From: a virus
Lineage: Duplodnaviria; Caudoviricetes
Length of the DNA: 33,299 nt
Strand: one strand, 5' to 3'
Virus record (IMG/VR): IMGVR_UViG_3300020129_000193
Coordinates: 1 to 33,299 of that record
This document shows positions 2 through 31,112 of this stretch, one piece after another. Positions within the stretch are counted from its first letter, which is position 1, and the number at the start of each line of letters is the position of its first letter. Position numbers and translations under genes: made by a program. The notes beneath the pieces are model-generated. The model saw only the letters and a program-made list of their open reading frames with translations, had not been told where the DNA came from and did not search any database.

Positions 2-1465
2 CTGTCCCTGGTTGATGAATGGTCGTCTCGTGCCAGGGCCGACAACGGCCAGTACAGCAGCGCCCGCACCCAGCCCGAAAAGCACGCCGGCTTCAAACGG
101 CAGACGGGGCGTGTCGCGACGCTGGGGACGCTTATCCATTACGCTAAGCTGGGCGGCTGGACCCCGCCGCCGCAACCGCTGAACCTCGTGACGCGCGGCC
201 GGCGGGCCAAAGCCGAGAGCAAGTTGGACGAACTGCCCAATCCGGGCTACGACGACCTCCCCTGGCTGTTGCAGCGCCTCTACGACCACCTCGGCCCGCT
301 GGTCGAGGGCCTGCCGCGCGACCTGGTGACGGTCGTCGGCCTGACCGCGTCCTCGATCCTCTGGCCTGGCGTCAGGTTCGAGAACCTGCCGCTCGCCCTC
401 TTCGTCAACCTCGTGATGGAGCAGGGGTCGGGCAAGTCGAAGGTCACGACGGAACTGGAGCGGTTGTTCCGCCTGGTCAAGGGCGTGGACGCCACCCTCT
501 TCACCTCCGGCTCGCCGCAGGGGATGTACACCGCGCTGGCGAAGTCGGACTCGAAGCGCATGTACGCCTCGTTCGACGAGTTCGGGGACTTCCTCGCCAC
601 GCTGAAACACGACTACATGGCGAATGCGCGCGGCGTGCTGAACTCGCTCTACGACGGGCGCGACGTGTCCTACCAGCTGGCCCGGTCCGCGGTCGTCATC
701 GACAACCCGCACGTCGTCGTGGTGGCGACGACGACCCCCAGGATGTTCTTCGACAACGTGACCCCGACCGACCTGGAGGCCGGGTTCGCCTCGCGCTTCT
801 GGTATCTGGCGCCCTGGTGGGAGAACAAGGGGGTGCATGACTACCCGACGCAGGCCGCCCGCGTGTCCCTCGCCAACCAGATCGCGGAACACGTCGCGGC
901 CCACGCGCACGTCACCCAGGTCCGGTTCGACTGCCCGGCGGGGACGGTCCCGCCGGAGTACGCGGCGTACGAGGCCGAGTGCGGCATCAACACGGGGGAA
1001 AGGCGAGGGATACGCGATGCGCTGGATAACCCGAAGACCCCCAAGGGTCGGTATCTCGCCAGGGTCAAACGAGTGGCCGGCGGTCTGGAAATGCTGGACA
1101 TTCGTCCACGAGTCCACGGCAACACTGTGGTCGTCCGCGACACCTATCTCCGGCTCGCCCTCGTCCTCGTCCGACGCACCGCCGTCTACGCCGACCTCAT
1201 CCTCGAACTCGTCGCCGCGACGGAGGACGAAGGAAGCTTGAAGAAGCTCCGCCGTGTGCTGGCGGCGAAGGAGGGCGGGGCCACGCGCGCCGACCTCTTG
1301 CAACTCGGCCACGTCCGGGCGCAAGACCTCAACCGCCTCTTGCCGATCCTCGTGGAGAACGGCGAGTGCGTCGAGGTGCCGGGGCCGGGGGGCAAGGTGG
1401 TCTACCGCACCAGCGGGATCGCTGGTGGGGGGCCGGGGCTGCGGTTACTGGACGCGGCGGACTAG
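2..1465 (+). CDS. Primase-helicase, 5'-truncated by the window: PriCT-2 domain followed by DUF3987-type P-loop helicase and a C-terminal winged-helix-like segment
   Basis: The frame is open from base 2: LVDEWSSR..QY..KHAGF..ATLGTLIHYAKLGGW is PriCT-2-like. Walker A MEQGSGKS, Walker B ASFDEFG, and LNSLYDG and GFASRF motifs are typical of DUF3987. The track start at 188 is internal. Confidence 0.85.
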   Translation: MSLVDEWSSRARADNGQYSSARTQPEKHAGFKRQTGRVATLGTLIHYAKLGGWTPPPQPLNLVTRGRRAKAESKLDELPNPGYDDLPWLLQRLYDHLGPLVEGLPRDLVTVVGLTASSILWPGVRFENLPLALFVNLVMEQGSGKSKVTTELERLFRLVKGVDATLFTSGSPQGMYTALAKSDSKRMYASFDEFGDFLATLKHDYMANARGVLNSLYDGRDVSYQLARSAVVIDNPHVVVVATTTPRMFFDNVTPTDLEAGFASRFWYLAPWWENKGVHDYPTQAARVSLANQIAEHVAAHAHVTQVRFDCPAGTVPPEYAAYEAECGINTGERRGIRDALDNPKTPKGRYLARVKRVAGGLEMLDIRPRVHGNTVVVRDTYLRLALVLVRRTAVYADLILELVAATEDEGSLKKLRRVLAAKEGGATRADLLQLGHVRAQDLNRLLPILVENGECVEVPGPGGKVVYRTSGIAGGGPGLRLLDAAD

Positions 1466-2065
1466 GAGGGGAAGATGGAAAAGCCGGGCATCGCCCTGGT
1501 CCCGAACAGGATCGCGCGGCCCTTCATCGAGAGACATCACTATCTCCATCGTTCGCTCCACATGGGGCAGTTGCACTACGGGCTGTACGATGGCGACCAA
1601 CTCAACGGGGTGTTGACCTTCGGGTATCCGGCGTTCAGTCGTTGTCTCGGGTTTCACGGGCTGGATTACCTGGAGTTTGCCCGTTGCGTCACCCTCAGGA
1701 AGGACGACCCTAACCTGCTCTCCTGGGCGGTGGCGCGGGTGCTTGATTGGGTCGCGAGGGACTGGGCGTGCAAGTACCCGGCACGCACGCCGATCCTCCT
1801 GGTCGTGTCGTATGCCGACCTCACGCGACATACCGGCGGGCTGTACCGGGCCTGCAACTTCATCGACACCGGGACGATCAAGGGCCACCACGGCTACGGG
1901 GCCGGGAAGGTTCACCGCAAGGAACACGGCGACGGACTCGGGCAGAAGCAACGCTATGTCTACCCGCTGGCCCCGCTAGTGCGGCGGCGGCTATGGACGG
2001 AACTCTCGCGGCGTTCTCTGCCCGGCGTGGGACCGGGGCTGCGGCTGCTGGACGCGGCGGACTAA
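1430..2065 (+). repeat. 36-bp imperfect direct repeat (1430-1465 and 2030-2065), both copies encoding GPGLRLLDAAD-stop
   Basis: gggccggggctgcggttactggacgcggcggactag vs ggaccggggctgcggctgctggacgcggcggactaa: 32/36 identical, 600 bp apart, all differences synonymous. Confidence 0.95.
1475..2065 (+). CDS. mom: Mom-family (GNAT-fold) DNA adenine modification enzyme
   Basis: Motifs FIERHHYLH, GVLTFG, LEFAR and VVSYAD..HTGGLYRACNF..TG match Mu Mom-like proteins. SD GGAGGG lies before the ATG. Confidence 0.82.
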   Translation: MEKPGIALVPNRIARPFIERHHYLHRSLHMGQLHYGLYDGDQLNGVLTFGYPAFSRCLGFHGLDYLEFARCVTLRKDDPNLLSWAVARVLDWVARDWACKYPARTPILLVVSYADLTRHTGGLYRACNFIDTGTIKGHHGYGAGKVHRKEHGDGLGQKQRYVYPLAPLVRRRLWTELSRRSLPGVGPGLRLLDAAD

Positions 2066-2132
2066 AATCAATCCTGGGGCGTTTTCGCCCGTGTGCCCAG
2101 GGCGGAACCCCCGCACGGGTCTTGGAGGACAC

Positions 2133-2381
2133 ATGAAAACTTCCGTCGCGTGTAGCCCCTCTGTAGAGGCCAGAAAGGGCATTGCCTTCCGGGTGGGCGA
2201 CTGGGTCTGGTTCGACGTGCGCCGGGACGCTGAGACGCATCGGGCGGTCCCGCGTACCGGGACGGGCGTAGTCGTGCGCGACCTGACGAGAAACCGTGCC
2301 GAGTCGTGCGACTACGAGGTGGAAACGGACGGCCACGGGCGGCTCTGCTTCCGCCGGGGGGAGCTGACGCCGTGGCACTGA
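2133..2381 (+). CDS. Small hypothetical protein, possible SH3/KOW-like beta barrel
   Basis: GGAGG SD before ATG 2133. The pattern FRVGDWV..GTGVVV..YEVETD..LCFRRGELT is typical of small phage SH3-like proteins. Confidence 0.65.
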   Translation: MKTSVACSPSVEARKGIAFRVGDWVWFDVRRDAETHRAVPRTGTGVVVRDLTRNRAESCDYEVETDGHGRLCFRRGELTPWH

Positions 2382-3478
2382 AAGGCTACGCGCCGGGCGC
2401 GGTGACGATCCAGCGGTGGGAACTGGTCGAGGGCGAGCGAGTGGTCAAACCCGCTGTCGTCCCGGCGCTCATCCATGAAGCGGGCTACCTGGCGATGCAC
2501 AAGCCGGTCGTGGAAGGATACGGACTGTGGACAATTTCTCACGTCCCCACCGGGATGAAGATCGCGACCCTGCCGACGCAGGCGGCGGCGCGACAGGCTA
2601 TTGGCTTATTGGTATCCCTCCCTGGATTAGAAAAGCCGACGCCTTCCTGCGCTCCCTCCGAGGTATCGGCTTTGCTGTCCAGCCTGCCGCCTTCGCCCGC
2701 GAGGACGACAACGACGCGCTCCTCACGGCCGTCTGGCACGCGCGGGACGAAGGACGGCCCCTCGTCCTGCTCCCCGGTCCCCCCGCCGGGCGTCGTGCCG
2801 ACCCCGGCGACGCGGGCGGCGCTGAACAAGGCGGCGCTGGCGTTCGGGCAACTGTGGAGTGGGGACGCGACGGGAGCTTCTTCCGTCCCCTCGGCTACCC
2901 CGGCGTGGCATGCCCTGGAGAGCGCGGCGGCGACGCTGTGGCGGGAGGAGATCGTGGTCAGGGTGACGCAGCCGCCGAGGGCGATCCTGCTGGAGACGGA
3001 CATCCCCACAACTCCGCCCGTTACGGAGAGACGGAATACACCTACGTCCCCGGACGGGGGGCAGTACGCCTTGCGCGACGGGGCACCGGCCACGCCGGGG
3101 GAGTTCCGGCGGCGGTATCAGACACTCATGGACCTGGGCGATCGGCTGCGGGCGGGTTCGCTGAGATTCCAGACTTTGTATCGTGAGGGCGAGGCGGAAG
3201 GCTGGACGAGCGAACGGCTCGACCGCTGGGAAAAGATCGACGCGAAGTTCCGCGCGCTCGTGGGTGAGGGCTGGCTGGTCTGGAGCGGCGCGGCCTTCTG
3301 CCTCGACTGCGCGCCGGAAGAATTTCGGGTCAATGTTGTCCGCAAGTTGGGGTTCGTCGGGGACCGCGAGCGGGGCTGGCACGAACTCGGCGTGAAGACG
3401 TTCTTGCGCCACCCCGAGATCGCGGACGTGGCCCCGTTACGGCGCGAGATGCGCGAGAAGATTGGGAGCAGGCTGTGA
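2372..3478 (+). CDS. Hypothetical protein, probably mosaic
   Basis: GTG 2372 follows a GGGGAG SD, and the stop overlaps the next start (GTGA). The N-terminal LAMH..WTISHVPTG motif is phage-like. The middle part looks out of frame (see findings). Confidence 0.6.
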   Translation: MALKGYAPGAVTIQRWELVEGERVVKPAVVPALIHEAGYLAMHKPVVEGYGLWTISHVPTGMKIATLPTQAAARQAIGLLVSLPGLEKPTPSCAPSEVSALLSSLPPSPARTTTTRSSRPSGTRGTKDGPSSCSPVPPPGVVPTPATRAALNKAALAFGQLWSGDATGASSVPSATPAWHALESAAATLWREEIVVRVTQPPRAILLETDIPTTPPVTERRNTPTSPDGGQYALRDGAPATPGEFRRRYQTLMDLGDRLRAGSLRFQTLYREGEAEGWTSERLDRWEKIDAKFRALVGEGWLVWSGAAFCLDCAPEEFRVNVVRKLGFVGDRERGWHELGVKTFLRHPEIADVAPLRREMREKIGSRL

Positions 3479-3942
3479 GTGTGATCACGGCGGAAATCGT
3501 GGCGCGGCAGATGTTCGATCGTCTGCCGGTCCCCCGTTGGCTTGTCAAAGACAAGAAGCTGACGACTTTCCACCTCGACCTCCCGCTGCCGCCGAGCGCG
3601 AATGACCTGTGGAAGATCACGCTGCTCTGGCACCGGGGGGCCGTGACGGGGGCGAAAATGGTCAAGACCCCGAAGTACCTCGCCTGGTGGGATGAGGCGG
3701 GTTACGGGGCCAGCTGGCCGCAGGGGTACGAGGACTTCCAGGGGATCGTCCTCCTCTACGTGGACTGCGGGCAGATGGGCCGCACGCGGGACGTGGACAA
3801 CTGCATCAAACCGGTGCAGGACCTCTGCGCCGCCATGCTGGGGGTCAACGACAAGATATTCCGTTTCTGTGCGGCGTTCGAGAGCGACGGTCACGGGGTC
3901 GCGCCCGGCCGGGTGGGCGTGACGCTGGTGCTGGTGGAGTGA
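3475..3942 (+). CDS. rusA: RusA-family Holliday junction resolvase
   Basis: LPLPPSAN..W and RDVDNCIKPVQD..GVND match the RusA D-x-D-N-x-x-K..D catalytic signature. Confidence 0.82.
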   Translation: MSVITAEIVARQMFDRLPVPRWLVKDKKLTTFHLDLPLPPSANDLWKITLLWHRGAVTGAKMVKTPKYLAWWDEAGYGASWPQGYEDFQGIVLLYVDCGQMGRTRDVDNCIKPVQDLCAAMLGVNDKIFRFCAAFESDGHGVAPGRVGVTLVLVE

Positions 3943-4253
3943 CGGCGATGGCGTTCAACGATCCGCTGTGGTGGAAGCGTAGCAAGTGGCACCGGGCCGG
4001 GATCACCCCGCAGGTCGAGGCGCAGGAAGGGCGGCGGCTGTCGCACAACGTCGGCACCGCGCGCCACCCGCGTGTTGCCGCGAAGGCCCGGCGCAAGACC
4101 TCCGGCGGGGGCTACCGGAATCGCCCCTCGCCGCTCGCGCGGGCGCTCGGCTACCACCCCGGCGGGCCGCGACGCGACCCCGAAATACAGGCCCGCCTGG
4201 CGGCGGGCTATTACGACGAACTACGACGGCAGTTCGAGCAGGCCGATGAGTGA
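3939..4253 (+). CDS. Basic hypothetical protein
   Basis: Coupled to rusA by a GTGA overlap. GC-rich third codon positions. Confidence 0.6.
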   Translation: MTAMAFNDPLWWKRSKWHRAGITPQVEAQEGRRLSHNVGTARHPRVAAKARRKTSGGGYRNRPSPLARALGYHPGGPRRDPEIQARLAAGYYDELRRQFEQADE

Positions 4254-4467
4254 CCTGGTGCGGGGGGCGCGGTCGTCGGCGGCCTGCATCGCGGCGCGAC
4301 TGGTGGCGATCAAGGCCCCGCTGACCCCGGAGCAGTACGCGCGGCTTATCCGCGTGGTGGCCGAGAAAGAAAACTGGGACCGCCCGCCGATGACGGCGGC
4401 GGCGAGGGAGCGGGTGCAATATGGGTGCCGGAAACGCGATCGTGACCCTGGTAGAGGCCCCGGATGA
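4246..4467 (+). CDS. Hypothetical protein (MSDLVRGARSS...)
   Basis: The ATG overlaps the end of the previous gene, and codon bias is coding-like up to about 4420. The tail overlaps the next ORF. Confidence 0.5.
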   Translation: MSDLVRGARSSAACIAARLVAIKAPLTPEQYARLIRVVAEKENWDRPPMTAAARERVQYGCRKRDRDPGRGPG

Positions 4468-4675
4468 CCCGAAGTTGCCGTTCCACTTCACGCGGGAATG
4501 TTACGGGCTGTGCCGCGACCTCCTGCATCTCTATCCCAAGACCGAGGGCGAGGGTTCGATTCGGGTACGCCACGGCGACGGGGAGGCGATGCGCGATTTC
4601 ACCCCGGACGAGTACCACAGTTGGGCGTTTCTGGAGTGGATCGCCGCGGTGCATCGCTACGAGGAGGGACGATGA
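4421..4675 (+). CDS. Hypothetical protein
   Basis: AGGGAG upstream, protein-like composition, and the stop overlaps the next ATG (ATGA). Confidence 0.6.
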   Translation: MGAGNAIVTLVEAPDDPKLPFHFTRECYGLCRDLLHLYPKTEGEGSIRVRHGDGEAMRDFTPDEYHSWAFLEWIAAVHRYEEGR

Positions 4676-4935
4676 GTACGCAGTTCAAACGGCAGACCGA
4701 CCTCCGCCGGTCGAGCGGACTCAGGCTCTCGACGCCCGTGCGCTCGTTGGTCGAGCGGGTGGCGGACAGCGCAGGTTTGACCTACTCCGACGCGATCAGG
4801 ATGCTGGTCGAGGAGGCGCTGGCGGCGCGGGCGGGGATACCCGTCGAGCAGATCGTCGGCGAACTGGACGGGGTGCGTTTCGTCCTCGGGCAGATCGAGG
4901 CGCGACTGGATAGCATCGAGAGCAAGGTCGGCTAG
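4672..4935 (+). CDS. Ribbon-helix-helix (CopG/Arc-like) DNA-binding protein with C-terminal coiled coil
   Basis: GAGGAGG SD. SSGLRLSTPVRSLVERVADSAGLTYSDAIRMLVEEAL fits the RHH beta-alpha-G-x-S/T-alpha pattern. Confidence 0.75.
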   Translation: MSTQFKRQTDLRRSSGLRLSTPVRSLVERVADSAGLTYSDAIRMLVEEALAARAGIPVEQIVGELDGVRFVLGQIEARLDSIESKVG

Positions 4936-5252
4936 GGTGTCGGCGGGGTGGGCGGCAGCGGCTCGACCGGGCGCTTGGGCAGGGTCGCGGGGTCCACCAC
5001 GGGGCGATCCTCGGGGTCGGGGCGGGCCACGTAGCCCGCCACCATCATCGACCCCTGCGTCAGGAGCCAGGTCGTGAGCCAGATCAGCGCCGCCAGCACC
5101 TCGGGCGGCATGGTCGGGTCCACCTTCGCCGCGACGTAGGCCACGAAGATACCAACCGCGCCGCCCACCGTCAGGCCGGTCCCGGCGCTGACCTTCCATT
5201 TCTGCGTCAGCTTGCCCTTGGCGATCTTGTATTTCGGCGCGGTCGCGGTCAT
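4932..5252 (-). CDS. Two-TM membrane protein, holin-like
   Basis: Basic N-terminus, two hydrophobic helices (GLTVGGAVGIFVAYVA; VLAALIWLTTWLL..MVAGY) and a Pro-rich tail. Last gene of the late arm. Confidence 0.65.
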   Translation of the reverse strand: MTATAPKYKIAKGKLTQKWKVSAGTGLTVGGAVGIFVAYVAAKVDPTMPPEVLAALIWLTTWLLTQGSMMVAGYVARPDPEDRPVVDPATLPKRPVEPLPPTPPTP

Positions 5253-5278
5253 TCCGTCACTCCCGAAAGGATGGGGAC

Positions 5279-5503
5279 ATGAGACAATTGTTCCACTGGC
5301 CCGTCGCGGGCAGGCGCATGGACTGGGAAATACTCTACGAGCCGCGCGACCTCTGGATCGGCGTCTTCTGGGACAAGCGCACCGGAGAGCCGGGTAAGCC
5401 CTGGATGGCCCATGACAGGTTTTGGCATGTCTACGTCTGCCTGCTCCCCTGCCTGCCCTGGCACATCTGGTGGTACGCCAACGAGACGACCTGGGACGAC
5501 TAG
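5279..5503 (+). CDS. Small Trp-rich hypothetical protein, antisense to the late operon
   Basis: The EPRDLWIGVFWD...YVCLLPCLP pattern is one I recognise from small phage proteins. It fills the gap between two minus-strand genes and has GC-rich third positions. Confidence 0.72.
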   Translation: MRQLFHWPVAGRRMDWEILYEPRDLWIGVFWDKRTGEPGKPWMAHDRFWHVYVCLLPCLPWHIWWYANETTWDD

Positions 5504-5507
5504 GCGG

Positions 5508-5810
5508 TCACAGCGCACGCTCCAGGTCCAGCTCGAAGGTCTGCGAACCGGAGTCGTTCGTGTCGGCGTGGAAACCGACGACGTGGACGATGATGGCGTG
5601 CTGGTGCGCGAAGCAGGCCGACACCTGCGGGCCGGAAATGTCGACCCGGTCCTGCCGCTCGCGCGCCAGTTCGGCCTTGCCCCAGTCGCGCACGACGACC
5701 CAGCCGTCCTCGATGGTCACGTAGTAGATCGCCGCCGTGTAGGGCGACATCAGCAGGCACCCGCCGCGCCCGCGCTGGTTGTTCGGGATGCTGTCCCGGC
5801 GAATCTGCAT
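5508..5810 (-). CDS. Hypothetical protein
   Basis: AGGAGG SD before the ATG. Coding-like codon bias. Confidence 0.75.
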   Translation of the reverse strand: MQIRRDSIPNNQRGRGGCLLMSPYTAAIYYVTIEDGWVVVRDWGKAELARERQDRVDISGPQVSACFAHQHAIIVHVVGFHADTNDSGSQTFELDLERAL

Positions 5811-5817
5811 GGTCCTC

Positions 5818-6186
5818 CTAGGCGACGTTGAGGGTGCGCGAGGTTTCGTTCCAGCTCGTCCCGTTGAAGATGAAGCGGAACATATCGCGCCTGCTGGCCG
5901 TGGTCGTCAGGGTCGGGCTGGCCGCGCCGGCGAAGTGGTAGATCGCGTTCCAGGTCACGGTGCGCGAGCCGGTGCCGTCCTGCACGATGGTGAGGTCCAG
6001 CACGAGGCCGGGGCGTCCGTTGACCGGCGCGGCGATGGTGATATTCCCGGCGGGCATCTGGACGATGAAGTGGTTGCCGTTGAACATGTTCGGGGTGAAG
6101 GTGCCCGCCGCCGCCGGGGCGGCGCTGGCGATGAGAAAATCGTCCTGCCCCCGCCCCTTGACGACCGACCGCTGGGTCACGCTCAT
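5818..6186 (-). CDS. Small virion/tail-fibre-associated beta protein
   Basis: The QDGTGSRTVTW..FAGAASPTLTTTA..D.F.F..NGTSW motif is common in phage fibre/spike proteins. GAGGAGG SD. Confidence 0.78.
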   Translation of the reverse strand: MSVTQRSVVKGRGQDDFLIASAAPAAAGTFTPNMFNGNHFIVQMPAGNITIAAPVNGRPGLVLDLTIVQDGTGSRTVTWNAIYHFAGAASPTLTTTASRRDMFRFIFNGTSWNETSRTLNVA

Positions 6187-6196
6187 CTTGGCCTCC

Positions 6197-8002
6197 TCAG
6201 GCTACTGCCTTCACGGTGAAATTGTCGTAGAGGGCCGTCCCCGTCGTGGGGGTGTCCTCGCAGCCGAACCCGACCCCGGTGCCGGCCGCCAGGGTGGTAT
6301 TGCCCTGCCCGACCAGCGCGCCGTTCCAGTATATCGCCACGTCGGTCCCGCGCACAGCCACCCCGACCGTGTGGACCGTGCCGGTCGTCAGGTCCCCGAT
6401 CTGGATCGCCGTGACCAGCGTGGTCGTGTTGCTGACGTGCTGCCAGACTTCGATCTCGTCGCTCGCCCCCTGGTTGAGGAAGCGGGCGGCGAGGTAGTTC
6501 TGGTTGTCGGTCCAGCGCACGACCACGCCGCAGCGGTAACTCCCGCTGGCGGGGATGGTGATGTCGGCCTGCGCGTAGTGGTCGTTGCCCGCCCCGCCCG
6601 CGCGGATGGCGAACCCGCCGATGTCGTTGGCCCCCGACTGCTTGACTTTGGTGCCGGTGCCGTCGATCACGTAGGTCGGCGTGCCGCCCCCGACATACGC
6701 CTGGTTCGACCAGGCCGCGTCGTGGGTCGTCAGCGCGGTGGCGGCGGTGTCGGTGAAGGCGTCGGTGATCAGCGCCGCGCCGGTGGCGGCGGGCGGGCTG
6801 ATCATGCCGCCGAGGGCGGCGGGCAGGGTCACGCTCGCGGGCCAGGCGGCCAGGTCGTCCACCGGGGTGATCTGCCCGACCGTGGTGATCCCGCCCTGCC
6901 GCTGCCCCGCCCCGTCCGCGCTGGTGGCGCTCACCCAGAGCACGTCGTTGATGTAGAAGGCGATCTCGCTGTTCCAGTCGAACACCCTAAATCTGTAGGT
7001 CGTGTTTGCCTGGAGGGTGACGCCGCCGTTGGAGGAGAGGGTGCTGGCCGAGTAGGACGAGAACAGGTAGGCGTGGGTGGTGTCGAGGACCGCGCTGAGC
7101 CGGTTCGTCCCGTTATCGCGGAAGTCCAGGTAAATCTCTGCCCCGGTGATCGTGGCCGGCGTGGTGAAGGTCGCCGCCCAGAGGCGCGGCTGGCTGCCCG
7201 GGTCGAAGCGCGCCCGCAGGGTGGCCGTGGTGGTGGACTGGAGTTTGCCGCCCGTGGTCGTGCCGGTGCCGGTCCAGACGCTGAGCGCCTGCCCGCCCAC
7301 CTCGGCGACGTAGCCGCTGGCGTTGCCGGCGTTGGTCGTGAACTGGTAGGCCCCGAGCGCCTGCCCGAAGCGACTGCTCGCCAGCGTGCCCGCCGCCGCC
7401 GGGCCGAGGCCGGTCCAGTAGTCCGCGCGCTGCACGCCCGCGCCGTTGGCGATGCCGACGAACACCGGGTCTTGCGCGTCGTCGTCGTCCACCCAGACGA
7501 TCGTGCCCTGCGGGAACTGCCCGAACTGCCCGCCGCTGACGACGTAGACCATGCCACCGCCCGACCGGGCGAAGCAGCAGAGCAGATAGTCGATCATGTA
7601 CAGGCGGGTGCCCGGCCGCTGGAGGGCGTTGCTGGTGACGCCGACGACCTGGATGTTGGGGTAGTTGTAATACAGCCCGCGATCCGCCGTCAGCGGGTTG
7701 GCCGGGTTGCTCGTGCTGGTGAGGAAGAGGCCGAAACTGCTGGCGTTGACCGGGAAACGCACCAGCACCGCCGCCGCGCCGAGCGCCGACCGGGCCACGC
7801 TCGCGGCCTTGTAGTCGGAGGTATTGCCCCAGTTCGCGCCCGCCCCCGCCGCGACCAGGAAGGAACCGTTGGTGGAGAGGTTGTTCCCGCTGTCGCTGAT
7901 CGCGTAGCCCGGCCGGGTGAGCGGGGCGGCCTGGGTGTCCGCGAAGTCGTCGCGCCAGAGCGGCGGGGTGCCGGACGGGGCGAGCAGCAAGAGGAGGGTC
8001 AT
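6197..8002 (-). CDS. Putative receptor-binding/fibre protein (601 aa) with repeated ConA-like beta-sandwich domains
   Basis: True start is ATG 8002 (ATGA overlap). T/G/A-rich, with WRDDF/ITDAF starts, FYINDVL, IYWNGALV and a terminal GVGF..YDNFTV typical of ConA/DUF1080-like folds. Confidence 0.7.
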   Translation of the reverse strand: MTLLLLLAPSGTPPLWRDDFADTQAAPLTRPGYAISDSGNNLSTNGSFLVAAGAGANWGNTSDYKAASVARSALGAAAVLVRFPVNASSFGLFLTSTSNPANPLTADRGLYYNYPNIQVVGVTSNALQRPGTRLYMIDYLLCCFARSGGGMVYVVSGGQFGQFPQGTIVWVDDDDAQDPVFVGIANGAGVQRADYWTGLGPAAAGTLASSRFGQALGAYQFTTNAGNASGYVAEVGGQALSVWTGTGTTTGGKLQSTTTATLRARFDPGSQPRLWAATFTTPATITGAEIYLDFRDNGTNRLSAVLDTTHAYLFSSYSASTLSSNGGVTLQANTTYRFRVFDWNSEIAFYINDVLWVSATSADGAGQRQGGITTVGQITPVDDLAAWPASVTLPAALGGMISPPAATGAALITDAFTDTAATALTTHDAAWSNQAYVGGGTPTYVIDGTGTKVKQSGANDIGGFAIRAGGAGNDHYAQADITIPASGSYRCGVVVRWTDNQNYLAARFLNQGASDEIEVWQHVSNTTTLVTAIQIGDLTTGTVHTVGVAVRGTDVAIYWNGALVGQGNTTLAAGTGVGFGCEDTPTTGTALYDNFTVKAVA

Positions 8003-8334
8003 CGAATCTCCCGCACCACGAGGTCGAGGATCGAGTCCCCGGTCTGCGCCGTCGCCACCAGGGTGAAGAAGTTCCAGGCCAGGAACCACTTCGGGTCGAT
8101 GGCGTAGGCCTTGCTGGCGGCGGCCACGATGGCGAAGGCGGCCCCGGTCGCCGGGTCGCAGAGCGGGTAGAAGGTCGTGCCGTCGACGCTGACCTGGAAG
8201 GTCAGGGAAGTGCCGTCGAAGGTCGAACGGGTAACGATGCCGATCAGCGTCTCCGCCGCACCGAGCGAGACGTTGCTGACCGTCTGCCCGTTCGAGATCG
8301 TGACCGTGCGGAAGTCCGGGCGCACGAACGACAT
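7999..8334 (-). CDS. Small virion beta-sandwich protein
   Basis: The TVTISNGQTVS..LIGI..GTSLTFQVSVDGTTFY pattern is common in phage structural proteins. AAGGAG SD. Confidence 0.72.
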   Translation of the reverse strand: MSFVRPDFRTVTISNGQTVSNVSLGAAETLIGIVTRSTFDGTSLTFQVSVDGTTFYPLCDPATGAAFAIVAAASKAYAIDPKWFLAWNFFTLVATAQTGDSILDLVVREIR

Positions 8335-8337
8335 GAC

Positions 8338-9153
8338 CTACTCCTTCACGTACGCTTGGCCCTCGCCGTTCACGATACTCCGGTGGTACACATCCCCCGC
8401 CGCGTTGCGGCCCCGGATGCCGACGTTCACGTAGTCGGTCCCCAGTATCTCCGTCATCTGCCCGCCCCAGCGAATCTCCGTGACCGGGACGCCGGACGGG
8501 TCGAGGTAGGAGCGGGCGACGATCGGGTCTTCCTGCGGCGGACCCTGCAGCGCGGGGACGCCGAGCGCCAGGAACGCCTCGCGCGTGCCGTAGAAGCGGT
8601 CCTTGTCGATGCCGTTGGCGTCGTACTGGTGGAGGGTGAGTTCCCGCCAGGGGGCCATGAACTTCTTGTCGGGAATCTCCTCCTGCCAGGAGGCCATCCA
8701 GAAGGGAAAACGGGCGAGCCGCTGGTCCATGAACAGGCCGGTCGGGTCGAGATACCACGTCGCGCAGTAGACCCCGCAGACGCAGCCGAAGGCGCGCTCG
8801 ACCTGCTCGCAGAAGGAGACGATCCAGCCGCCGAGGTCGCCCGTGAACCCGACCTGCGCGGGGAACTCCTCCACGTCGAGCCAGAAGGTCGAGCCGACTT
8901 CCACGTAGGGGCGGCAGGCGTCGATGAAGTTCGCCGCCTCGCGGTCCACGTCCCCGCCGCCCACCGATGGCTCGAACATGTAGTGATAAAACCCGCAGAT
9001 AACATTCTTCGCACGCGCGTTGAGTACCTGCGGCGGCAAGTAGCCGTTGCGGTAGGAATGCCCGCCCGACGCTTTGATGATGGCGAAGTCGGGGTTGGTC
9101 GGGTAGCCGTAGTCGCCCTGGTGCGAGGCGAGATCGATACCTTCTAGGGTCAC
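8338..9153 (-). CDS. Endolysin, GH25 muramidase with an unrecognised C-terminal domain
   Basis: GIDLASHQG, FAIIKAS, GFYHY, WLDVEE (DxE), FWMASW, LHQY and IDKD match GH25. Confidence 0.92.
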   Translation of the reverse strand: MTLEGIDLASHQGDYGYPTNPDFAIIKASGGHSYRNGYLPPQVLNARAKNVICGFYHYMFEPSVGGGDVDREAANFIDACRPYVEVGSTFWLDVEEFPAQVGFTGDLGGWIVSFCEQVERAFGCVCGVYCATWYLDPTGLFMDQRLARFPFWMASWQEEIPDKKFMAPWRELTLHQYDANGIDKDRFYGTREAFLALGVPALQGPPQEDPIVARSYLDPSGVPVTEIRWGGQMTEILGTDYVNVGIRGRNAAGDVYHRSIVNGEGQAYVKE

Positions 9154-9154
9154 G

Positions 9155-9364
9155 CTACTTTCCTCTCTGCCGGTCGTGCCAGGGCACCCAACCGAATGTC
9201 CGTGCTTGCGCCAGCAAGATCACGTCCTCGGACTGCTCCTGGTCACGCGACCAGGAGTAGACGCGATCGGCCAATGCATAGAGCAATTCGCGCACCGTCT
9301 CGGTACGCTCGCCCCGACGCGCCAGTTCCGCCCCCGAGATACGCTCGTCCATGCCGTAAACCAT
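9155..9364 (-). CDS. Hypothetical protein
   Basis: AGGAG SD. Fills the gap before the lysin. Confidence 0.6.
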   Translation of the reverse strand: MVYGMDERISGAELARRGERTETVRELLYALADRVYSWSRDQEQSEDVILLAQARTFGWVPWHDRQRGK

Positions 9365-9372
9365 GTCATCTC

Positions 9373-10467: not shown

Positions 10468-10489
10468 TATCTGCCCCCCGTCCCCGCCG

Positions 10490-11951: not shown

Positions 11952-11952
11952 G

Positions 11953-21500: not shown

Positions 21501-23285
21501 GGCCAGGAGGGCGTTCCTGCGGGCGATCGGGTTGCGGTAGGCCACCTCGACCAGTTGCGCGACCTCGGGCGGGGTGAGGCTACCGATCGCCTCGGCGCGC
21601 GTCTGCCCCGGATACCCCGGCATGTTCGGCAGTTCCAGCCCCGCCCCGAGGTCGGCGGGTGGCGTGGCGGGGGTCCGGTCGCCGCCCGCGATGAGGGTGT
21701 TGATCAACTCTCCCGACTGGTCGGGGCGAAGCGCGCCCTGCTCCTGCAACTGGTTCAGCAGGCCCGGCACGGCGGCGGGATCGATGCCGGTGCGCTTCGC
21801 CCAGAAACCGGGGTCGGCGGGCGCGTAGACCATGCCTCGCCCGCTGTCCCCGCTCGCCAGGAGGTCGCGCATCAGACCGAGCGGTTCGGGCGGGGTCACG
21901 TCGGGCGCGAGCGGCGGGACCGGCGGGCCGAGGCCCCCGGTGCCGCGCCGACCAAGGCCGGGAAGCAGTTGGTCTTTCGGGACATTCCCGCCAAGCGGCA
22001 ATTGCGGCCCTTGCACAGGCGGCAGCGGCACGTCCTGAGAGGGCGGCAAGAGCGGGCCAACGCCGGGCTTGCCACCTTCCCCGATGCCGGGGATGAGGTC
22101 GCGCAGCGGCAAGTTACCGCGCTGATTCGGGAACGCCGGTCCCAGTTCAGGCGGCAAGGGTACATCCTGGTTGGGGTTCAGGATCGGGCCGATCCCCGGA
22201 CGACCCCCGCGCCCGAGGCCGGGGATCAGTTGGTCGGGCGGCAGATTGCCCCGGCCGGGGAACGCCGGTCCCTGCTCGGGCGGGAGGGCAGGGCCGAGTT
22301 CGGGCGGCAGGAGCGGGCCGATCCCGACGCCGGGGATCAGGTCGCGCGCCGGCAGGTTGCCGCGCAGGTTCGGGAAAGCCGGGCCGAGTTCGGGCGGGAG
22401 ATCGGGTCCAGTGACCGGGTTGAGCGCCGCCAGGAGTTGCGCCGCCCGCGCCGCCTCGCCCTCGGCGGGCTTGGCCGCCATCTGCGCCGCGTCGGCGGTC
22501 AGGCCGGGGATCGGCGCGGCGGGCAGGCCGTAACGCCGCTGGAGGATGTCGCCCATGACGCGCGGCCCCAGGACGCCCGCCACCTTCGGCGCGGCCTGCC
22601 GGACCAGCGCGCCGCCGACCTTCTGGAGAACCTGCCCCTCGGGGTAGAGAATCTGATTGACCAAGCCGAGGTCCAGGCCCAGGCCCCCGGCGATACGCCC
22701 GGCCTGCTGCGCGGCGCGGGCCTCCGCCGACCCCGCGCCGGTCGCGTAGGTCAGGGGATTGACCAGTTGGTTGACGAGGCCGGTGGCGAAGGGCGACTCC
22801 CGCGCCAGCCCCTCGTTCGCCGCCCGCGCCCGCGCGATGGGATTCCCCTGGTTGGCGGCAGCGGCGGCCTGGGCGTTGCGAAAGTCGGCGGGGCCGAGCG
22901 GCGAGGGCAGGCCCAGCCGACCCGCCTCGGCCAGGAGCGCCCCGATCCCCGTCGCCGCGCCGCCGGGCAGGAGGAACGACCCCGCGTTCGCCAGTCCCCG
23001 CAGGGCCGGGTTGTCGATCTGCTGCGTCAGGCCGATCTCCTGCGCGATACCGCCGGTCAGGGCCTTGGCCCCGTAGTCGAGGCCCTCGCGCGCCAGGCCG
23101 AGCGTGTCGAGCAGGGTGCGCGGCAAGAGCGTCCCTAACCGCAGGCCCTCGACAAGTCGCTGCTGGGGGGTCGTCTGCGGGTCGGCCAGGCTCGGGAGGG
23201 CCTGGAGGGGCGCGACCGTGGACTGGAACTGCTGGGCGAGGCGCTGGGCGAGGGCGCTCTGCATCAGGCCCCGGAGTTGGTCCAT
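18591..23285 (-). CDS. Large ejection/internal virion protein (1564 aa) with Pro-rich repeats and an ADP-ribosyltransferase (ART-PolyVal-like) domain
   Basis: A/G/Q-rich helical body. The segment at about 20800-21290 reads VVYHGT..FDTF..GAGYYFS..EYA..YL..GYDGVI..EYVAFDPQQIKSATGNRGTYD. Confidence 0.82.
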   Translation of the reverse strand: MDQLRGLMQSALAQRLAQQFQSTVAPLQALPSLADPQTTPQQRLVEGLRLGTLLPRTLLDTLGLAREGLDYGAKALTGGIAQEIGLTQQIDNPALRGLANAGSFLLPGGAATGIGALLAEAGRLGLPSPLGPADFRNAQAAAAANQGNPIARARAANEGLARESPFATGLVNQLVNPLTYATGAGSAEARAAQQAGRIAGGLGLDLGLVNQILYPEGQVLQKVGGALVRQAAPKVAGVLGPRVMGDILQRRYGLPAAPIPGLTADAAQMAAKPAEGEAARAAQLLAALNPVTGPDLPPELGPAFPNLRGNLPARDLIPGVGIGPLLPPELGPALPPEQGPAFPGRGNLPPDQLIPGLGRGGRPGIGPILNPNQDVPLPPELGPAFPNQRGNLPLRDLIPGIGEGGKPGVGPLLPPSQDVPLPPVQGPQLPLGGNVPKDQLLPGLGRRGTGGLGPPVPPLAPDVTPPEPLGLMRDLLASGDSGRGMVYAPADPGFWAKRTGIDPAAVPGLLNQLQEQGALRPDQSGELINTLIAGGDRTPATPPADLGAGLELPNMPGYPGQTRAEAIGSLTPPEVAQLVEVAYRNPIARRNALLAHPNPADVASAALDRITGDASKGLPANRTLLENLATNYPDLAGKIAYLPDPGDAGGGFGITPRLVNDRTSALRSFMSGSVVKRADGSPQVVYHGTNAAFDTFQPSTNTSVEAARFGAGYYFSADPAAAAEYATGTGSRLDASPEGANIIPAYLRLTHPLEYTAGGELPQSFSRPTPLQYGTPQEFTAEARKLGYDGVIGRDADGTVEYVAFDPQQIKSATGNRGTYDPTKPGVLDLTPQPGATGGGQGPLGWLTGAPIAGAPQISRLGIAGSGGLIGAAAGGLVPAENNDQRRIHALQGAAVGTGLGLGATTNPGINILQSLPVAGEFGKGLIQAANVAQREAMDRPNQGVLNAGNIANAWRVQATSTIRNLIQDELTARLWNSNAGIRQQMMNDNWVSMVQLYNLGQRNGYDALPVQTTSLLDKWGLTGYEPKVGAGFNNVNQSMIKDLSAVDLAKLEAAFAALNPAQGGIPLAGLAFGAVKGYTRAWQESLFSTLNEFTRLAARHAAFQDEFAPAMQVAATNFLQRHGLTGYLDAAQGFTPADVAQVAGAGSMAAQEWDQTLKKVTNMAEQRALDIHGDFAHEVAGGGKTVGQRASGLLNVAVPFSSWALKAYPRTAAMMLDHPGVSLALMLLTLGQAQKVQQEGRAGLVGGIPIDANTPVVGGIARKMLGNFPGQAYVNLLGSLTPISTSALLQPEQAVNANLYQKSAEALDRAGFSYNPLVQAAAYAMNKDFQRPGPLSRTAGLEMALPGPQVPSAALGPLNAARVAAGGSAQHTTAEDRKLAEIFYLTTGHQLADPTNVSDPQRAALLASTLDPHSPIRQLAAQSTGQANVARNLVSLVSPASVQAAPQVEQQAEAASYAARHAPPARYDPRTINALMNSGNMAQYIEAVMRQRANVGTQAEVSPLLQLTSQSAGQDRAAMYLAALGAQGPWGSPLVGAPSSLINQILGLSTPSVEIGGPQGGQR

Positions 23286-23453
23286 CTAGCGCCCCTTCGC
23301 GGCCTCCAGCCAGTGCAACGCCTCTTCGAGTTTCGTGATCGTCAGCGCCACCTCGCGCCCGCCGGGACCGCGCGCGATCTCGCTCGCCAGCGCGCGGGCG
23401 GCGTCGAACCCCAGCAGGATCGTCCGTTCCGCCGCGCCATGGGAACTTTCCAC
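23286..23453 (-). CDS. 55-aa Tad1/Acb2-like helical hairpin protein (not called separately in ORF track)
   Basis: AAGGAGG SD and GTG 23453. GREVALTITKLEEALHWL resembles the Tad1-family RENAxAITKLEEALxWL helix. Confidence 0.68.
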   Translation of the reverse strand: MESSHGAAERTILLGFDAARALASEIARGPGGREVALTITKLEEALHWLEAAKGR

Positions 23454-23470
23454 GTCTGCCTCCTTACGGC

Positions 23471-25577: not shown

Positions 25578-26849
25578 CTACCTCCCGGCCGCCGCCCCGC
25601 CGCCGATGATCTGCGCCAGGAGGTCGGACCCCGGCGTCTTGGCCGCGTTCTGCCTGAGCCAGTCGATGTAGTTCTGCGTCGGCCCGCCGAGTTGCGACTG
25701 CACGTAGTCGGAGAGGGTCTTCTTCGAGACGCCCTGCTGGAACTGCTGATAGATCGGGTTGGCCCCGGCGGTCAGCATCCCCAGGAGGTCGTTGACCATG
25801 CCGGCCTGATTGGAGGTGTCGGCCAGCGCGCCCGCCGGGGCGGAGAGGAGGCCCTGCGCGGCGGGCAGGAGGTTGCGCGCGAAGCCCTGAATCTGCCCGA
25901 AGGTGTTGGCGCCGCCGAGCATCCCGCCGAACTGGTCCGCGATCTGCGAGGGGATCACCGGCTTGCCGCCGTTCGCCAGGCCCGCGTATTCCATCACGGT
26001 CTTCAGGTACGGCGCGATGGAACTGACCAGGCCGGGCGTGAAGATGCCGCCCCGGTTCACGTCGATCCCGAACTTGCCGAGCAGTTGCGTCAGGACCGCC
26101 GAGAGCGCGGTCGGGTCGCCCGCCTGCGCCTGGGCGTACCCCTGCTGGGCGATGGCGCTCGTCGGGTCGACCGACCCGAATGCCCCGGTCGCCCCCGGCA
26201 CGGCCGGATTCGTCGTCGGACTCCCCGGTGTGGGGACGAATGGTGCGACCACGGGCGCTCCTCCTTGCTTGCTGGCGGTATCCACGGCGGCGGCCCCGGC
26301 GCGCGTGCCCTGCTGGATCGCGGCCGCGCTCGCCCCGCCCAGGCCAACCGAGCCGGGCGTCGTCTCGTTGCCCACCGTGCCGGGGCCTTGCTGACCGCCG
26401 GGCGGATTGAAAAACCCGCCGACCGGGGTCGCATTCGTCACCTGCCCGCCCTTCGGGGGCAGCAGACCAGCCGCACTATTCGAGTACGCCGCCCACATGG
26501 GGCCTTGCCCGACCGTACCACCCCCGCCGGGAGCGGGCGGCGGGACGGCGGGCTGATCGGGCCAAGTCTGATTACCCGCCGGCGGGACCGAGGGACCATA
26601 CTGCGCCGGGATAGCGGGGCCGTATGGCGTCGGGACCGGGGGGCCGTATTGCGGCGATGGCCCGCCGAGGGTCGTGGGCACCTGCCGCCCGACGATCTGC
26701 GACACCCGCGCCTGTACCGTGGGCGAGACAGGCGTCGTCCAGCCCGAGTTGATGTAGTCGAGGATCGACTGGTCGCCCGTCTGCTGCCAGAGCTGGGCCA
26801 GCAGTTTATTTAGTTGATCCCGTGCCGGCCCGGCTTGCGGCGCGACCAT
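25578..26849 (-). CDS. G/P/Q-rich putative ejection protein; possible second in-frame start at 26252
   Basis: AGGAGG SD. The C-terminal domain is paralogous to that of 26859-28316. Confidence 0.7.
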   Translation of the reverse strand: MVAPQAGPARDQLNKLLAQLWQQTGDQSILDYINSGWTTPVSPTVQARVSQIVGRQVPTTLGGPSPQYGPPVPTPYGPAIPAQYGPSVPPAGNQTWPDQPAVPPPAPGGGGTVGQGPMWAAYSNSAAGLLPPKGGQVTNATPVGGFFNPPGGQQGPGTVGNETTPGSVGLGGASAAAIQQGTRAGAAAVDTASKQGGAPVVAPFVPTPGSPTTNPAVPGATGAFGSVDPTSAIAQQGYAQAQAGDPTALSAVLTQLLGKFGIDVNRGGIFTPGLVSSIAPYLKTVMEYAGLANGGKPVIPSQIADQFGGMLGGANTFGQIQGFARNLLPAAQGLLSAPAGALADTSNQAGMVNDLLGMLTAGANPIYQQFQQGVSKKTLSDYVQSQLGGPTQNYIDWLRQNAAKTPGSDLLAQIIGGGAAAGR

Positions 26850-28347: not shown

Positions 28348-30921
28348 TCAACCGCCCGGAACCCTGCCGCCCGTCATCTCGGCGGGGGGTTGCCCTTGCG
28401 GCCCGCCGGTCACGGGACCGGGCGGCGAAGGGACGCCCCCCTGCGGGGCTGGCGGACCCTGACTCTGCGCCATGAGGACCTGTTGCCAGCCGATTTGCAG
28501 GAGCGCATTCCCGCCGCCCATGATCGCCGCCCCGGTCATCGCCTCCAGGCTCTTGGGATTCGTGACCGCGAGTTCCTGGAGGATACGGAGGAAATTGCGC
28601 TGGGGATTCGGGATATTCATCTTCTTCATGCCCTCGCGGGCCGAGAGCATCTTGGTCTGGACCGCCTGCTCGACCATCGACCAGAGGGTCTGCTGCTCCT
28701 GCAGCGAGAGGCGGTTCATGGTGACGATGTTCTGCGTGCCGTTGAGTTTGACCATCTCGGGCGTCAGGGACTTGAAGGTCGGGTAGATCGCGTCGAACTG
28801 GTCCTCGACGGGGCGCGAGGGGTAGGGCAGTTTCGCCAGTTCGCCCTCGCCGCCCTTGCGGATCACCAGTTCCGCCTTGCAGGTATAGATCAGTTCGCGG
28901 TAGCGTTCCAGCGCGTCGATGATCGGGTTGACCTGGACCGAGGCCGCCGCGCCCGCCTGGAGCGTCTGCTGGAAGCCGGAGTTGGCCGTGCCGCCGCCCT
29001 TGAGGAGCGGCGAGTCCATGTCGGAAATCTCCTGCCAGATCGACTGCAGGATGGCGTTCCCGTCCGGGGAACCGGCCACGCTCCAGACCAGCGGCTCGAC
29101 CTTCTCCCCGACGATACCGAAATTCGTCGCCCCCGGCAGAGTACTAACACGTTTCATGTCCTCCTTACGCGTGCCGGGGACGTAGTACATCATCACGGCG
29201 GGATCGACCAGTTTCACCGCCTGAGTAGCGATGGCCGACTGGAGGAGGTCGAACAATTTGAACGCGCGCCGGAGGGGTGTGAGACAGCCCATGCCCCGGA
29301 ACCGTTCGTAATCCCCGACATCTTGCGTGGCGTAGTAGGGCGCACCGCCCCAGATGACGTACTGGTAGACCGGGAAACCGAAGTCGATCCGGGTCGGTTC
29401 CTTGATCCACTTCGCACGGTTCTTCTCGCTGGCATCGCCCCACTCCCCGCCCGACTCCCAGAAGATCGCGTGCCAGAGTCCGCCCTGGCCTTTCGGGTAG
29501 ACATCGGTCCAGCCCCCGAGGGTGATCGTCATGTTCGGGGAGGGCGCGGTGTCGGCCTCTTCCTCGCCGTAGTAGTCCTGCATCTCCTGGGGGTAGACCG
29601 TCCGCGCCTCGGCCAGGGTCATCGTCTCGCTGTAGAGGATCGCCACGCCCGGCAGGGGATAGAGCCGGTTCAGCGGGACGTAGGCCGACCAGACCGGGTG
29701 CTGCTTGTCGGCCGGGTCGAAACCGATACGGAAACCCGCGCCGCCGAGGAGGGCCATGCCGCCCGCCTCGATGCGGGGCAGGGGCATGCGGGGGTCGCCA
29801 CTCGCGGCCTCGCGAATCCACTGCCGCTCGTCCTGGTCGCGCCCGTAGCGGAGCCAGTCTTCTAATGCCTGGCTGGCATTCACCGTGTCGTCGTCGTCGG
29901 CCCAGGGCGGGCAATCGACCTCCATCGCCCGGTCGCCCGAGGCGGTGCAGTAGGCCGTGACCCGTTCCGCGAAGGCGAAGGGGCGGGAAGAGATGTGGAC
30001 GATGTCGCCGCCCGCCGCGTTGAAGGGCCGGCCCGGGCGCGGCCCCATCGGGATGTCCTCGGCGCGCGTGCGCGACTGGTTGTAGAGCTGGATGTCCTCG
30101 CGGATGCGCGTGTCGCGGTCCTGCATCAGGGTCTTCGCCTGGCGCAGGTGCCGCGAGCAGGTGGCGTAACTCGGCCCCTTGTCGCCCCAGCGGTTTGCCG
30201 GCAGGGGGCGGAGGTCGAACGCGGGCGTCGTCTTGCTGCGCTTCTTCTTCGGTTTCTGCGCGCCGCCGTAGTCGGGGCCGTCCTGCTTCCGCTGGGTGGC
30301 GGGGGAAGGTGTGCCCGGCCCGGTCTGCTGACGGGCGGCGAGGAGTTGCGACAAGAGGCCCTCGACCGCGCCGATCCCGCGCTGGGCGAAGAGTTGGAGC
30401 ACCTGCGCCTGCTGGTCGGGATTGAGCGCGCGGAAGACGCGCGTGAGCGCGGGTTGCAGTTCCGCCAGCAAGTGTTCCCTGGCCTGCGGGTCTTGCGGCG
30501 GCGGCGGGGGCTGGGGTGCCGGCGGCGGACCCTGCTGCGGCGGGGCCATCGCGCCGGGCGGGGGTGGGCCGTCGTTGCGGGGCGGGGGTGGACCAGGAGG
30601 CGGCGGAGGCGGAGCGGGAGGCCCGCCCTGCGTCTGGCCGACGCCGTTCTGCGCCGCCTGCTGGAGGAGTTGGACGAGCGCCTGCGGTCCCTGGTCCAGG
30701 AGCAGCCCGCCGAGTTTGCGGGGCATGTCGGGGGCGGACTGGAGGATGGCGGCGAGGGCGCGCAGGAGCGGCGCGCCCGGCGGCCCGGCCTGCTGCAACG
30801 CCTGGACGAACTGCTGGAGCGCCTGGGCGACCTGCGGGGCGAGGCCGGGGGCCTGCCCGGCCGGACCCTGCGGGCCGCCGGGCGGTGCTTGCGGCGGACC
30901 CTGGGTTACGGGCGCAACCAT
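28348..30921 (-). CDS. Portal protein (857 aa) with a long P/Q-rich N-terminal extension
   Basis: First large gene after TerL. Portal-like C-terminal MLSAREGMKKMNIPNPQRNFLRILQE. ATG 30921 with a GAGGT SD. Confidence 0.75.
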   Translation of the reverse strand: MVAPVTQGPPQAPPGGPQGPAGQAPGLAPQVAQALQQFVQALQQAGPPGAPLLRALAAILQSAPDMPRKLGGLLLDQGPQALVQLLQQAAQNGVGQTQGGPPAPPPPPPGPPPPRNDGPPPPGAMAPPQQGPPPAPQPPPPPQDPQAREHLLAELQPALTRVFRALNPDQQAQVLQLFAQRGIGAVEGLLSQLLAARQQTGPGTPSPATQRKQDGPDYGGAQKPKKKRSKTTPAFDLRPLPANRWGDKGPSYATCSRHLRQAKTLMQDRDTRIREDIQLYNQSRTRAEDIPMGPRPGRPFNAAGGDIVHISSRPFAFAERVTAYCTASGDRAMEVDCPPWADDDDTVNASQALEDWLRYGRDQDERQWIREAASGDPRMPLPRIEAGGMALLGGAGFRIGFDPADKQHPVWSAYVPLNRLYPLPGVAILYSETMTLAEARTVYPQEMQDYYGEEEADTAPSPNMTITLGGWTDVYPKGQGGLWHAIFWESGGEWGDASEKNRAKWIKEPTRIDFGFPVYQYVIWGGAPYYATQDVGDYERFRGMGCLTPLRRAFKLFDLLQSAIATQAVKLVDPAVMMYYVPGTRKEDMKRVSTLPGATNFGIVGEKVEPLVWSVAGSPDGNAILQSIWQEISDMDSPLLKGGGTANSGFQQTLQAGAAASVQVNPIIDALERYRELIYTCKAELVIRKGGEGELAKLPYPSRPVEDQFDAIYPTFKSLTPEMVKLNGTQNIVTMNRLSLQEQQTLWSMVEQAVQTKMLSAREGMKKMNIPNPQRNFLRILQELAVTNPKSLEAMTGAAIMGGGNALLQIGWQQVLMAQSQGPPAPQGGVPSPPGPVTGGPQGQPPAEMTGGRVPGG

Positions 30922-31112
30922 GCTTCTACCTCGGTGCGAACGTGGTCGTCCACGAGGATTACCAACCAGGGCGGCGAGCCGATCTTGACCTCCGTGGGCC
31001 ATTTTCCGGTCAGGCGGACGGACGTGGCGACGGACGACAGGACATCCCGGCGGATACTCTCGAACTCACCGAACGTCAACTCCGGCGGACCCTGCGTGAC
31101 CGGCGCGACCAT
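30906..31112 (-). CDS. 68-aa hypothetical protein sharing its first 10 residues with the portal
   Basis: Begins MVAPVTQGPP. GAGGT SD. Confidence 0.6.
   Translation of the reverse strand: MVAPVTQGPPELTFGEFESIRRDVLSSVATSVRLTGKWPTEVKIGSPPWLVILVDDHVRTEVEAWLRP

Follow-up and report, generated by a model that had tools for sequence, protein, structure and literature searches.

The linear virus record IMGVR_UViG_3300020129_000193 comprises 33,299 bases at ~68% guanine plus cytosine, and the window analysed here is that whole stretch. At several places in the window a small accessory gene, which we call a passenger, lies at the terminus of a core gene, in some cases between two copies of the core gene's start or end. 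A sequence-only reading had proposed six such sites: 1430/2030 (site 1), 5245/5504 (site 2), 30892/31083 (site 3), 26252/26849 (site 4), 11418/11945 and 9153/9364. Alleles in relatives establish sites 1, 2 and 9153/9364 as places where accessory genes are gained and lost at gene termini, and site 3 is likely another such insertion/deletion (indel), while 26252/26849 and 11418/11945 fall away. Overall, the window contains a set of accessory-gene slots at gene termini that is real and unusually well resolved.

CheckV puts the completeness of the record at 41%, and because close homologues sit on contigs of 42-46 kb, ~10 kb of the genome is probably unseen. Family scans (Pfam, PHROG) run on 40 chosen open reading frames (ORFs) identified a DUF3987 primase-helicase, a Mom-like protein, tail-fibre pieces, a GH25 endolysin, the major capsid protein, an NlpC/P60 protein and the terminase large subunit, together with a weak RusA-like match. 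The labels 'portal' (from position after the terminase) and 'holin' (from hydrophobic pattern and position) are putative, and the genes so labelled had no portal or holin family match in these scans. The data on close relatives are contigs of four soil-metagenome runs (X1-X4), all from one study, which contain 8-22% of the words of window 1-6000. These contigs represent other strains related to the window phage; they show presence only and drop rare forms. They were aligned at 80% likeness to window 1-12500, where 15 of 37 joints are listed, and separately to window 1250-2300, with three joints in all and 30 of 49 pieces listed. Empty alleles, which the sequence-only reading had expected in relatives, were present at three of the four sites that these contigs cover.

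The core gene at site 1 is the C-terminal part of the primase-helicase (188-1465, plus strand; PF13148, phrog_10514/3022), whose homologues P0001-P0006 match at 64-85% and which is ~744 amino acids (aa) long in relatives. Its final 13 codons and stop, with a TSGIA variant in front, make up the upstream copy (1424-1465, plus strand). The passenger that follows is a Mom-family DNA-modification protein of 196 aa (1475-2065, plus strand; phrog_1384; PF25680 at E 6e-17 and 62.4 bits, against a curated cut-off of 27.1). The downstream copy (2018-2065, plus strand) is a displaced primase end, in frame with Mom, and supplies the last 14-15 residues and the stop of that protein; positions 2024-2064 match the upstream copy, and the match to the empty allele runs from 2020 onward. 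This empty allele, X2 record 8, passes from 1404 to 2020 through 6 letters, lacks the TSGIA variant and has a primase end that can be read as YRPPGVGP..., like the YRPPGAGP of P0001-P0003. The repeat copy that this empty allele retains is the downstream one, which marks the copy at present fused to Mom as the former primase end. Relatives' primases terminate PPGAGP.LR..EAAD, and the four closest Mom homologues stop before the borrowed tail; the tail thus belongs to the primase and is alien to Mom proteins, which makes the fusion a derived state. This speaks against a reading in which the passengers were present in the ancestor and the empty alleles arose later, by deletion between short repeats already in place.

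The primase ends of relatives also bear on the proposal that the recoded copy arrived together with its passenger, which did not survive the comparison at site 1. The TSGIA-type end of the window is present in X1 record 2 and X3 record 14 (1-2 differences up to 1463), where 255 other letters and no mom follow, and in X4 record 22, where a different loose sequence follows; the atypical end thus occurs in mom-free contigs of three of the four runs. Mom in turn stands behind other ends. In X1 record 3 it follows an end that is 9 bases shorter and read as PP type, and in X2 record 10 a diverged mom (35 differences in 202 bases) lies behind a loose end like the LRIV..EAAD of P0002/P0003. In all, mom has at least three primase-end types in front of it and exists as two sequence types ~85% alike, and the Mom tail itself varies in X1 and X3 by four silent changes and one Gly-to-Arg change (6 of 7 listed). 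Because these combinations vary, we conclude that mom and the primase end recombine freely and that the recoding of the window's two copies is allelic variation at a gene end that is itself conserved. The silent differences at site 1 are likely standing alleles shuffled by homologous recombination. The slot is also open to other genes: in the P0004 contig the primase is followed at once by a phrog_24928 gene, which we read as fused to it by a frameshift. This gene takes the place that mom holds here and may be another acetyltransferase-type gene.

Not all of the site 1 alleles distinguish between routes of entry. The filled allele of X1 (records 3 and 5), in which one end type stands on either side of the passenger, has mom and one repeat unit more than the empty allele of X2 record 8, a topology as from a single crossover. 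This is what Campbell-type capture would give, the route put forward in the sequence-only reading, in which small circles carrying a copy of a gene terminus integrate and excise by one homologous crossover and need no integrase. All three contig joints at site 1 (window 1250-2300) are forward skips, with no circle junction among them.

Site 2 lies at the start of a putative holin-like membrane protein (4932-5252, minus strand; assigned from translation, hydrophobic pattern and position), a gene that the relatives' contigs cover. One 7-bp copy (5245-5251, minus strand) contains a new ATG start with a new ribosome-binding site in front, and the other (5504-5510, minus strand) is the former start, a GTG that overlaps the TGA of the upstream gene and survives as a dead stub of 3 codons. 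The passenger between them is a 74-aa antisense gene (5279-5503, plus strand) with no family; it weakly resembles some hypothetical proteins of viruses (score 0.89), which we treat as no more than a lead, and it is skipped in relatives. In X1 and X3 an empty joint from 5244 to 5504 leaves out exactly 259 bases, and 7 letters fit both sides (sides 105 and 73). Site 2 is a real indel, although its repeat is at chance level, because this exact skip recurs in two of the four runs. A further joint, from 5171 to 5504 with 67 other letters, represents a more diverged holin start that again lacks the passenger and is found in all four runs. In the empty form the holin starts at the GTG that overlaps the upstream TGA, restoring the stop-start overlap usual in this genome, and the filled form brings the new ribosome-binding site and ATG.

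A 7-bp repeat resembles a deletion between short repeats, and passages of PMC3119063 describe deletion between 4-20-bp repeats as common in natural isolates, which would suit ancestral passengers; the empty state in the more diverged relatives and the restored genome-typical overlap both argue the other way. Nearby, the 84-aa gene at 4421-4675 is also replaced or absent in relatives, with joints 4393 to 4690 and 4417 to 4631.

At 9153/9364 the start rather than the end of a gene has been taken over. The GH25 endolysin (8338-9153, minus strand; PF01183) begins at a new GTG, and the adjoining 69-aa passenger (9155-9364, minus strand) begins with the ATG and ribosome-binding site from which relatives start their endolysin; no repeat extends past the start codon. 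An X3 contig (one of the four runs) joins 9123 to 9362 through 27 letters, with no displaced copy remaining, and since it lacks the passenger we regard the site as a real indel. The 27 letters are predicted to encode the same nine residues as codons 2-10 of the window endolysin, and because these residues are the same across the joint, the endolysin of the X3 relative would start at the passenger's ATG. Codons 2-10 differ from the relative at 8 of 27 bases, all silent, as against 8-11% in the gene body (binomial P 0.004), and the recoded start travels with the insert in the single available comparison. That passengers borrow a neighbour's start or stop is thus borne out for Mom and the 69-aa gene, and the same arrangement can be seen in the sequence of the 68-aa gene at site 3.

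Site 3 occupies the slot between the terminase large subunit (31395-32825, minus strand; phrog_2, E 1e-26) and the putative portal-like protein of 857 aa (28348-30921, minus strand). Its passenger is a 68-aa orphan (30906-31112, minus strand) with a copy of the portal start as its first 10 codons (31083-31112). The downstream copy (30892-30921, minus strand) comprises portal codons 1-10 in rarer codons and holds the passenger's TAA in another frame. The shared decapeptide belongs to the portal, because the four closest of its 19 homologues (49-89%) begin MVAPVTQGPPQ. No true homologue of the 68-aa passenger was found among 1.84 billion representatives, and in a protein-cluster look-up it forms a cluster of 1; a 683-aa match, a repeat protein aligned at residues 15-55, was judged spurious. 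One of the four silent changes in the portal copy (GTC to GTA) is needed for the TAA stop of the 68-aa gene, and the overlap with this stop may have selected part of the recoding. A second accessory gene of 91 aa (31116-31391, minus strand), with no terminal repeat and no family, lies in the same slot. Atlas searches of two of the window's passengers yielded no family.

Only distant loci were available for comparison at this slot. Close-kin loci were not found in viral contigs (portal, primase, capsid, portal-alignment and terminase-alignment queries, the search otherwise yielding only four terminases at 29% identity, which were left out of the comparison), in species genomes, or in metagenome contigs with a primase-alignment query. 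The portal-alignment search gave six distant loci (L006-L011; portal 42-51%), of which three span the terminase-portal junction: the two genes abut in L006 and L009, and L011 has an unrelated 0.3-kb stretch at this point. No terminal repeat pair was prominent among the six best repeats of each of the six loci. A protein-cluster look-up of 10 window proteins (seven singletons, three outside the collection) was uninformative for core versus accessory status. The direct terminase-portal contact in two of three distant loci is a further point against ancestral passengers, and together with the derived Mom fusion and the site 2 alleles it leaves that explanation very unlikely.

In the same packaging and internal-protein region, the genes starting at 26849, 30921 and 31112 (minus strand) all begin MVAP; the first of these, a 423-aa gene, shares 16 of 29 bases at its start with each of the other two, in the upper chance range.

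We then asked how far the repeats themselves stand out. The site 1 repeat (1424-1464/2024-2064) is identical at 36 of 41 positions with a score of 28.5, and that of site 3 (30892-30921/31083-31112) at 26 of 30 with a score of 20.0, while the best repeat score per codon-shuffled window was 15.5-18.5 (n=12). In a boundary-anchored test of 35 adjacent co-oriented gene pairs, site 1 matched at 25/27 and site 3 at 23/27, and none of 5000 null rounds reached 22. The repeats of sites 1 and 3 exceed chance. The other four sites match over at most 8 bp, so the earlier expectation of repeats beyond codon-shuffled chance stands for two sites of the six. Site 2 is a 7-bp and 11418/11945 an 8-bp match, and both are at chance level as repeats because, within 1 kb, 4 of 38 gene starts have a 7-mer match and 2 of 38 an 8-mer anyway. 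The claim that the repeats differ synonymously applies to all four differences at site 3 and to site 1 from 1430/2030 onward, with one Gly/Val change just upstream at site 1.

The lengths of the site repeats (41-48, 30, 7 and ~2 bp) and their sequences bear on a further explanation, in which a site-specific integrase or transposase acting in trans, from the host, a satellite or the missing genome part, inserts mini-elements with replacement gene ends. The model would be e14 in E. coli icd, a 15-kb prophage with site-specific excision that leaves icdC as a dead fragment, as described in passages of PMC13626634. Sites 1 and 3 resemble the icd/e14/icdC topology in that a working gene end, an insert and a displaced original end follow one another with mostly silent differences, and with roughly 10 kb unseen there would be room for an enzyme in the remainder of the genome. 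All of the repeats are coding, though, with no common sequence and no shared core or arm, and passengers and repeat lengths differ from site to site. Unlike e14, the inserts are 0.2-0.6 kb and the displaced end is re-used by the passenger. Phage 21 is a further integrative element of the e14 type. As the sequence-only reading had reported, no integrase is seen: tyrosine and serine integrases (PF00589, PF07508) gave 0 matches in the 41%-complete record, with positive controls. We consider an enzyme supplied in trans highly improbable.

Codon use agrees in direction with what had been proposed, in that the copy serving the core gene has the less typical codons at sites 1 and 3 (codon adaptiveness index 0.50 versus 0.70 in the passenger's copy at site 1, and 0.42 versus 0.77 at site 3). 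We do not take rarer codons as proof of a donor, as gene starts in the window are generally lower (median 0.67 versus 0.76 in gene bodies) and starts without a known insert score as low (0.32, 0.47). Passenger genes have an index of 0.48-0.61 against the gene-body median of 0.76.

Two of the proposed sites were rejected. The 7-bp match at 26252/26849 lies inside one uninterrupted virion-region ORF of 423 codons (25578-26849, minus strand), and the L009 homologue is likewise a single ORF, of 367 aa, with a C-terminal match at E 7e-9 and a weak N-terminal match at E 0.03. At 11418/11945 the 176-aa gene (11421-11951, minus strand) is kept in a relative, as X3 record 20 spans 11345-11946 with the gene in place, and no empty joint was found there among the 15 of 37 joints listed. 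At 11946-11953, contigs of X1, X3 and X4 (records 20, 28 and a loose end) have a different sequence after the stop of the tail gene and before the 176-aa gene; this is another variable slot, of which the window appears to hold the empty form. The start of the 696-aa tail gene (14043) and the gene start at 11951 are alike (MSGLAGT/VSGLTGT, 19 of 27 bases, genome-wide P ~0.004), a third terminal repeat missed by the earlier reading, and here a core gene lies between the copies.

Taken together, presence/absence polymorphism at gene termini, borrowed starts and stops, and free reassortment of the site 1 ends are what we observe. The duplicated ends are probably the scars of a rare off-register joint, illegitimate or by microhomology, within a core-gene terminus, which was then selected and reshuffled by homologous recombination. 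In such a scheme a donor phage would have the passenger beside the same core gene; a homologous crossover would occur inside that gene and a second, illegitimate one at the distal side of the passenger, 7-48 bp before the terminus of the recipient's gene. Recombinants would survive only if the core gene retained a full terminus and ribosome-binding site, a selection we expect because genes here overlap stop-to-start. An overshooting joint would harm the next gene, whereas one falling slightly short would merely duplicate a few codons, and a displaced terminus in frame would then provide the passenger with a start or stop. Recombination would remove longer duplications, so that those of 7-48 bp remain. 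Exchange with co-circulating relatives, for which site 1 supplies the alleles, could then replace either copy by other alleles; such swaps between alleles of the same gene end would account for silent-only differences. Finally, the repeats could permit loss by deletion and occasionally a circle, with no dedicated enzyme or shared motif. Use of the same slots by other genes is seen in relatives, with phrog_24928 in P0004, the 0.3-kb stretch in L011 and nothing in L006 and L009.

Several points weigh against this explanation. We found no donor in which mom, lying behind this primase, ends in a C-terminus of its own. A clean insertion by one crossover would explain X1 records 3 and 5 and the empty allele of X2 just as well. 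At all three sites that can be compared, the copy serving the core gene has the rarer codons; this finding, together with an endolysin start more diverged than its gene body, suggests that a donor supplied the ends at some sites. All population data are contigs from one study at 80% likeness, and close-kin allele data cover four sites (1, 2, 9153/9364 and 11418/11945).

Capture of circles by a single crossover would account for the site 1 alleles just mentioned, for the exact 259-bp skip with 7-bp overlap at site 2 and for the 12-13 identical bases at the inner edge of the site 3 repeat, and it has a precedent in T4-type phages, where integrase-free mini-circles between short repeats are reported in passages of PMC2839356. 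It would, however, require a first illegitimate joint to make the circle, which is one extra step; a pair of crossovers, one homologous and one illegitimate, would yield an identical product with no circle. Repeats of 7 bp and ~2 bp are very short for homologous integration. No displaced copy is left at 9153/9364, and RecT, ERF and Rad52 had no match in the incomplete record, with positive controls. The small circles proposed as vehicles left no back-joint among the three site 1 joints or the 15 of 37 listed, weak evidence as contigs drop rare forms. We judge this route unlikely.

An off-register origin would work like moron accretion and lambdoid mosaic joints. Morons (Hendrix et al. 2000, as summarised in passages of PMC2839356) enter by poorly defined, perhaps illegitimate recombination. 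Like morons, the passengers are extra single genes between genes adjacent in relatives (sites 1, 2 and 9153/9364, and the terminase-portal slot in two of three distant loci) and have codon use unlike the core genome; like classic morons, the site 2 passenger is antisense. Classic morons carry their own promoter and terminator, whereas the passengers here borrow a neighbour's start or stop and leave a duplicated terminus, and at sites 1, 3 and 9153/9364 they share the orientation of their neighbours and lie so close to them that there is little room for either element.

In lambdoid mosaics one junction of an acquired block may stem from homeologous recombination and its second junction from illegitimate recombination (passages of PMC2327257). 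Whether phages acquire genes by illegitimate recombination or through short homology is debated, with relaxed homologous recombination favoured in PMC3945230. The sites described here are similar in having one joint in shared sequence and the other without, and in exchange of alleles among diverged relatives. The passages of both papers tie lambdoid joints to Red/RecT/Rad52-like enzymes, the last two of which, like ERF, are unmatched in this fragment, and hold no description of terminal duplications fused to passengers. PeSL cassettes of the T4-type phages RB49 and phi1 form integrase-free mini-circles between PeSL repeats, with reversibility proposed (passages of PMC2839356), and like them small accessory ORFs are gained and lost here without an integrase. 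PeSLs are one conserved promoter/stem-loop family across the genome, whereas each repeat here is a different coding sequence and no circle back-joint is among the listed contig joints; because there is no shared repeat family, the slots do not belong with PeSL cassettes. A literature search for this exact pattern found no description, subscription papers lying mostly outside the search. What sets this genome apart is that it has several such sites and that their filled and empty alleles occur together.

Some further features were noted. In L006 (1257-3327, minus strand) small early genes share an exact 14-base ribosome-binding-site-plus-start sequence at six places, with near copies at two, a linker- or PeSL-like sequence that is a candidate shuffling repeat. 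In the window, a 1564-aa internal protein (18591-23285, minus strand) has an ART-PolyVal ADP-ribosyltransferase domain at residues 679-819 and proline-rich internal repeats at 21946-22409. The adjacent 59-aa gene (23286-23465, minus strand) matches the Acb2/Tad1 hairpin domain barely above cut-off (E 1e-6), and its product is a possible immune-signal sponge within the virion operon.

These slots bear on how phages acquire genes. It is conceivable, if rather doubtful, that gene termini serve as reusable integrase-free attachment sites, with a bracketed passenger leaving as a circle of 0.2-0.6 kb and, through a single crossover, entering the same terminus in a relative that lacks it. If so, each core-gene end would be a reversible cassette slot and passengers would need no start or stop of their own; were circles demonstrated, the mini-circle route of T4-type phages would be widened to coding ends of any kind. 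As to what was observed, recoded replacement ends can be ordinary population alleles, which calls for caution in reading them, and passengers can gain terminal peptides from core genes. Overall, a single soil phage population contains the slots in filled, empty and alternative form, with joints readable to the base, which makes the question of gene acquisition testable.

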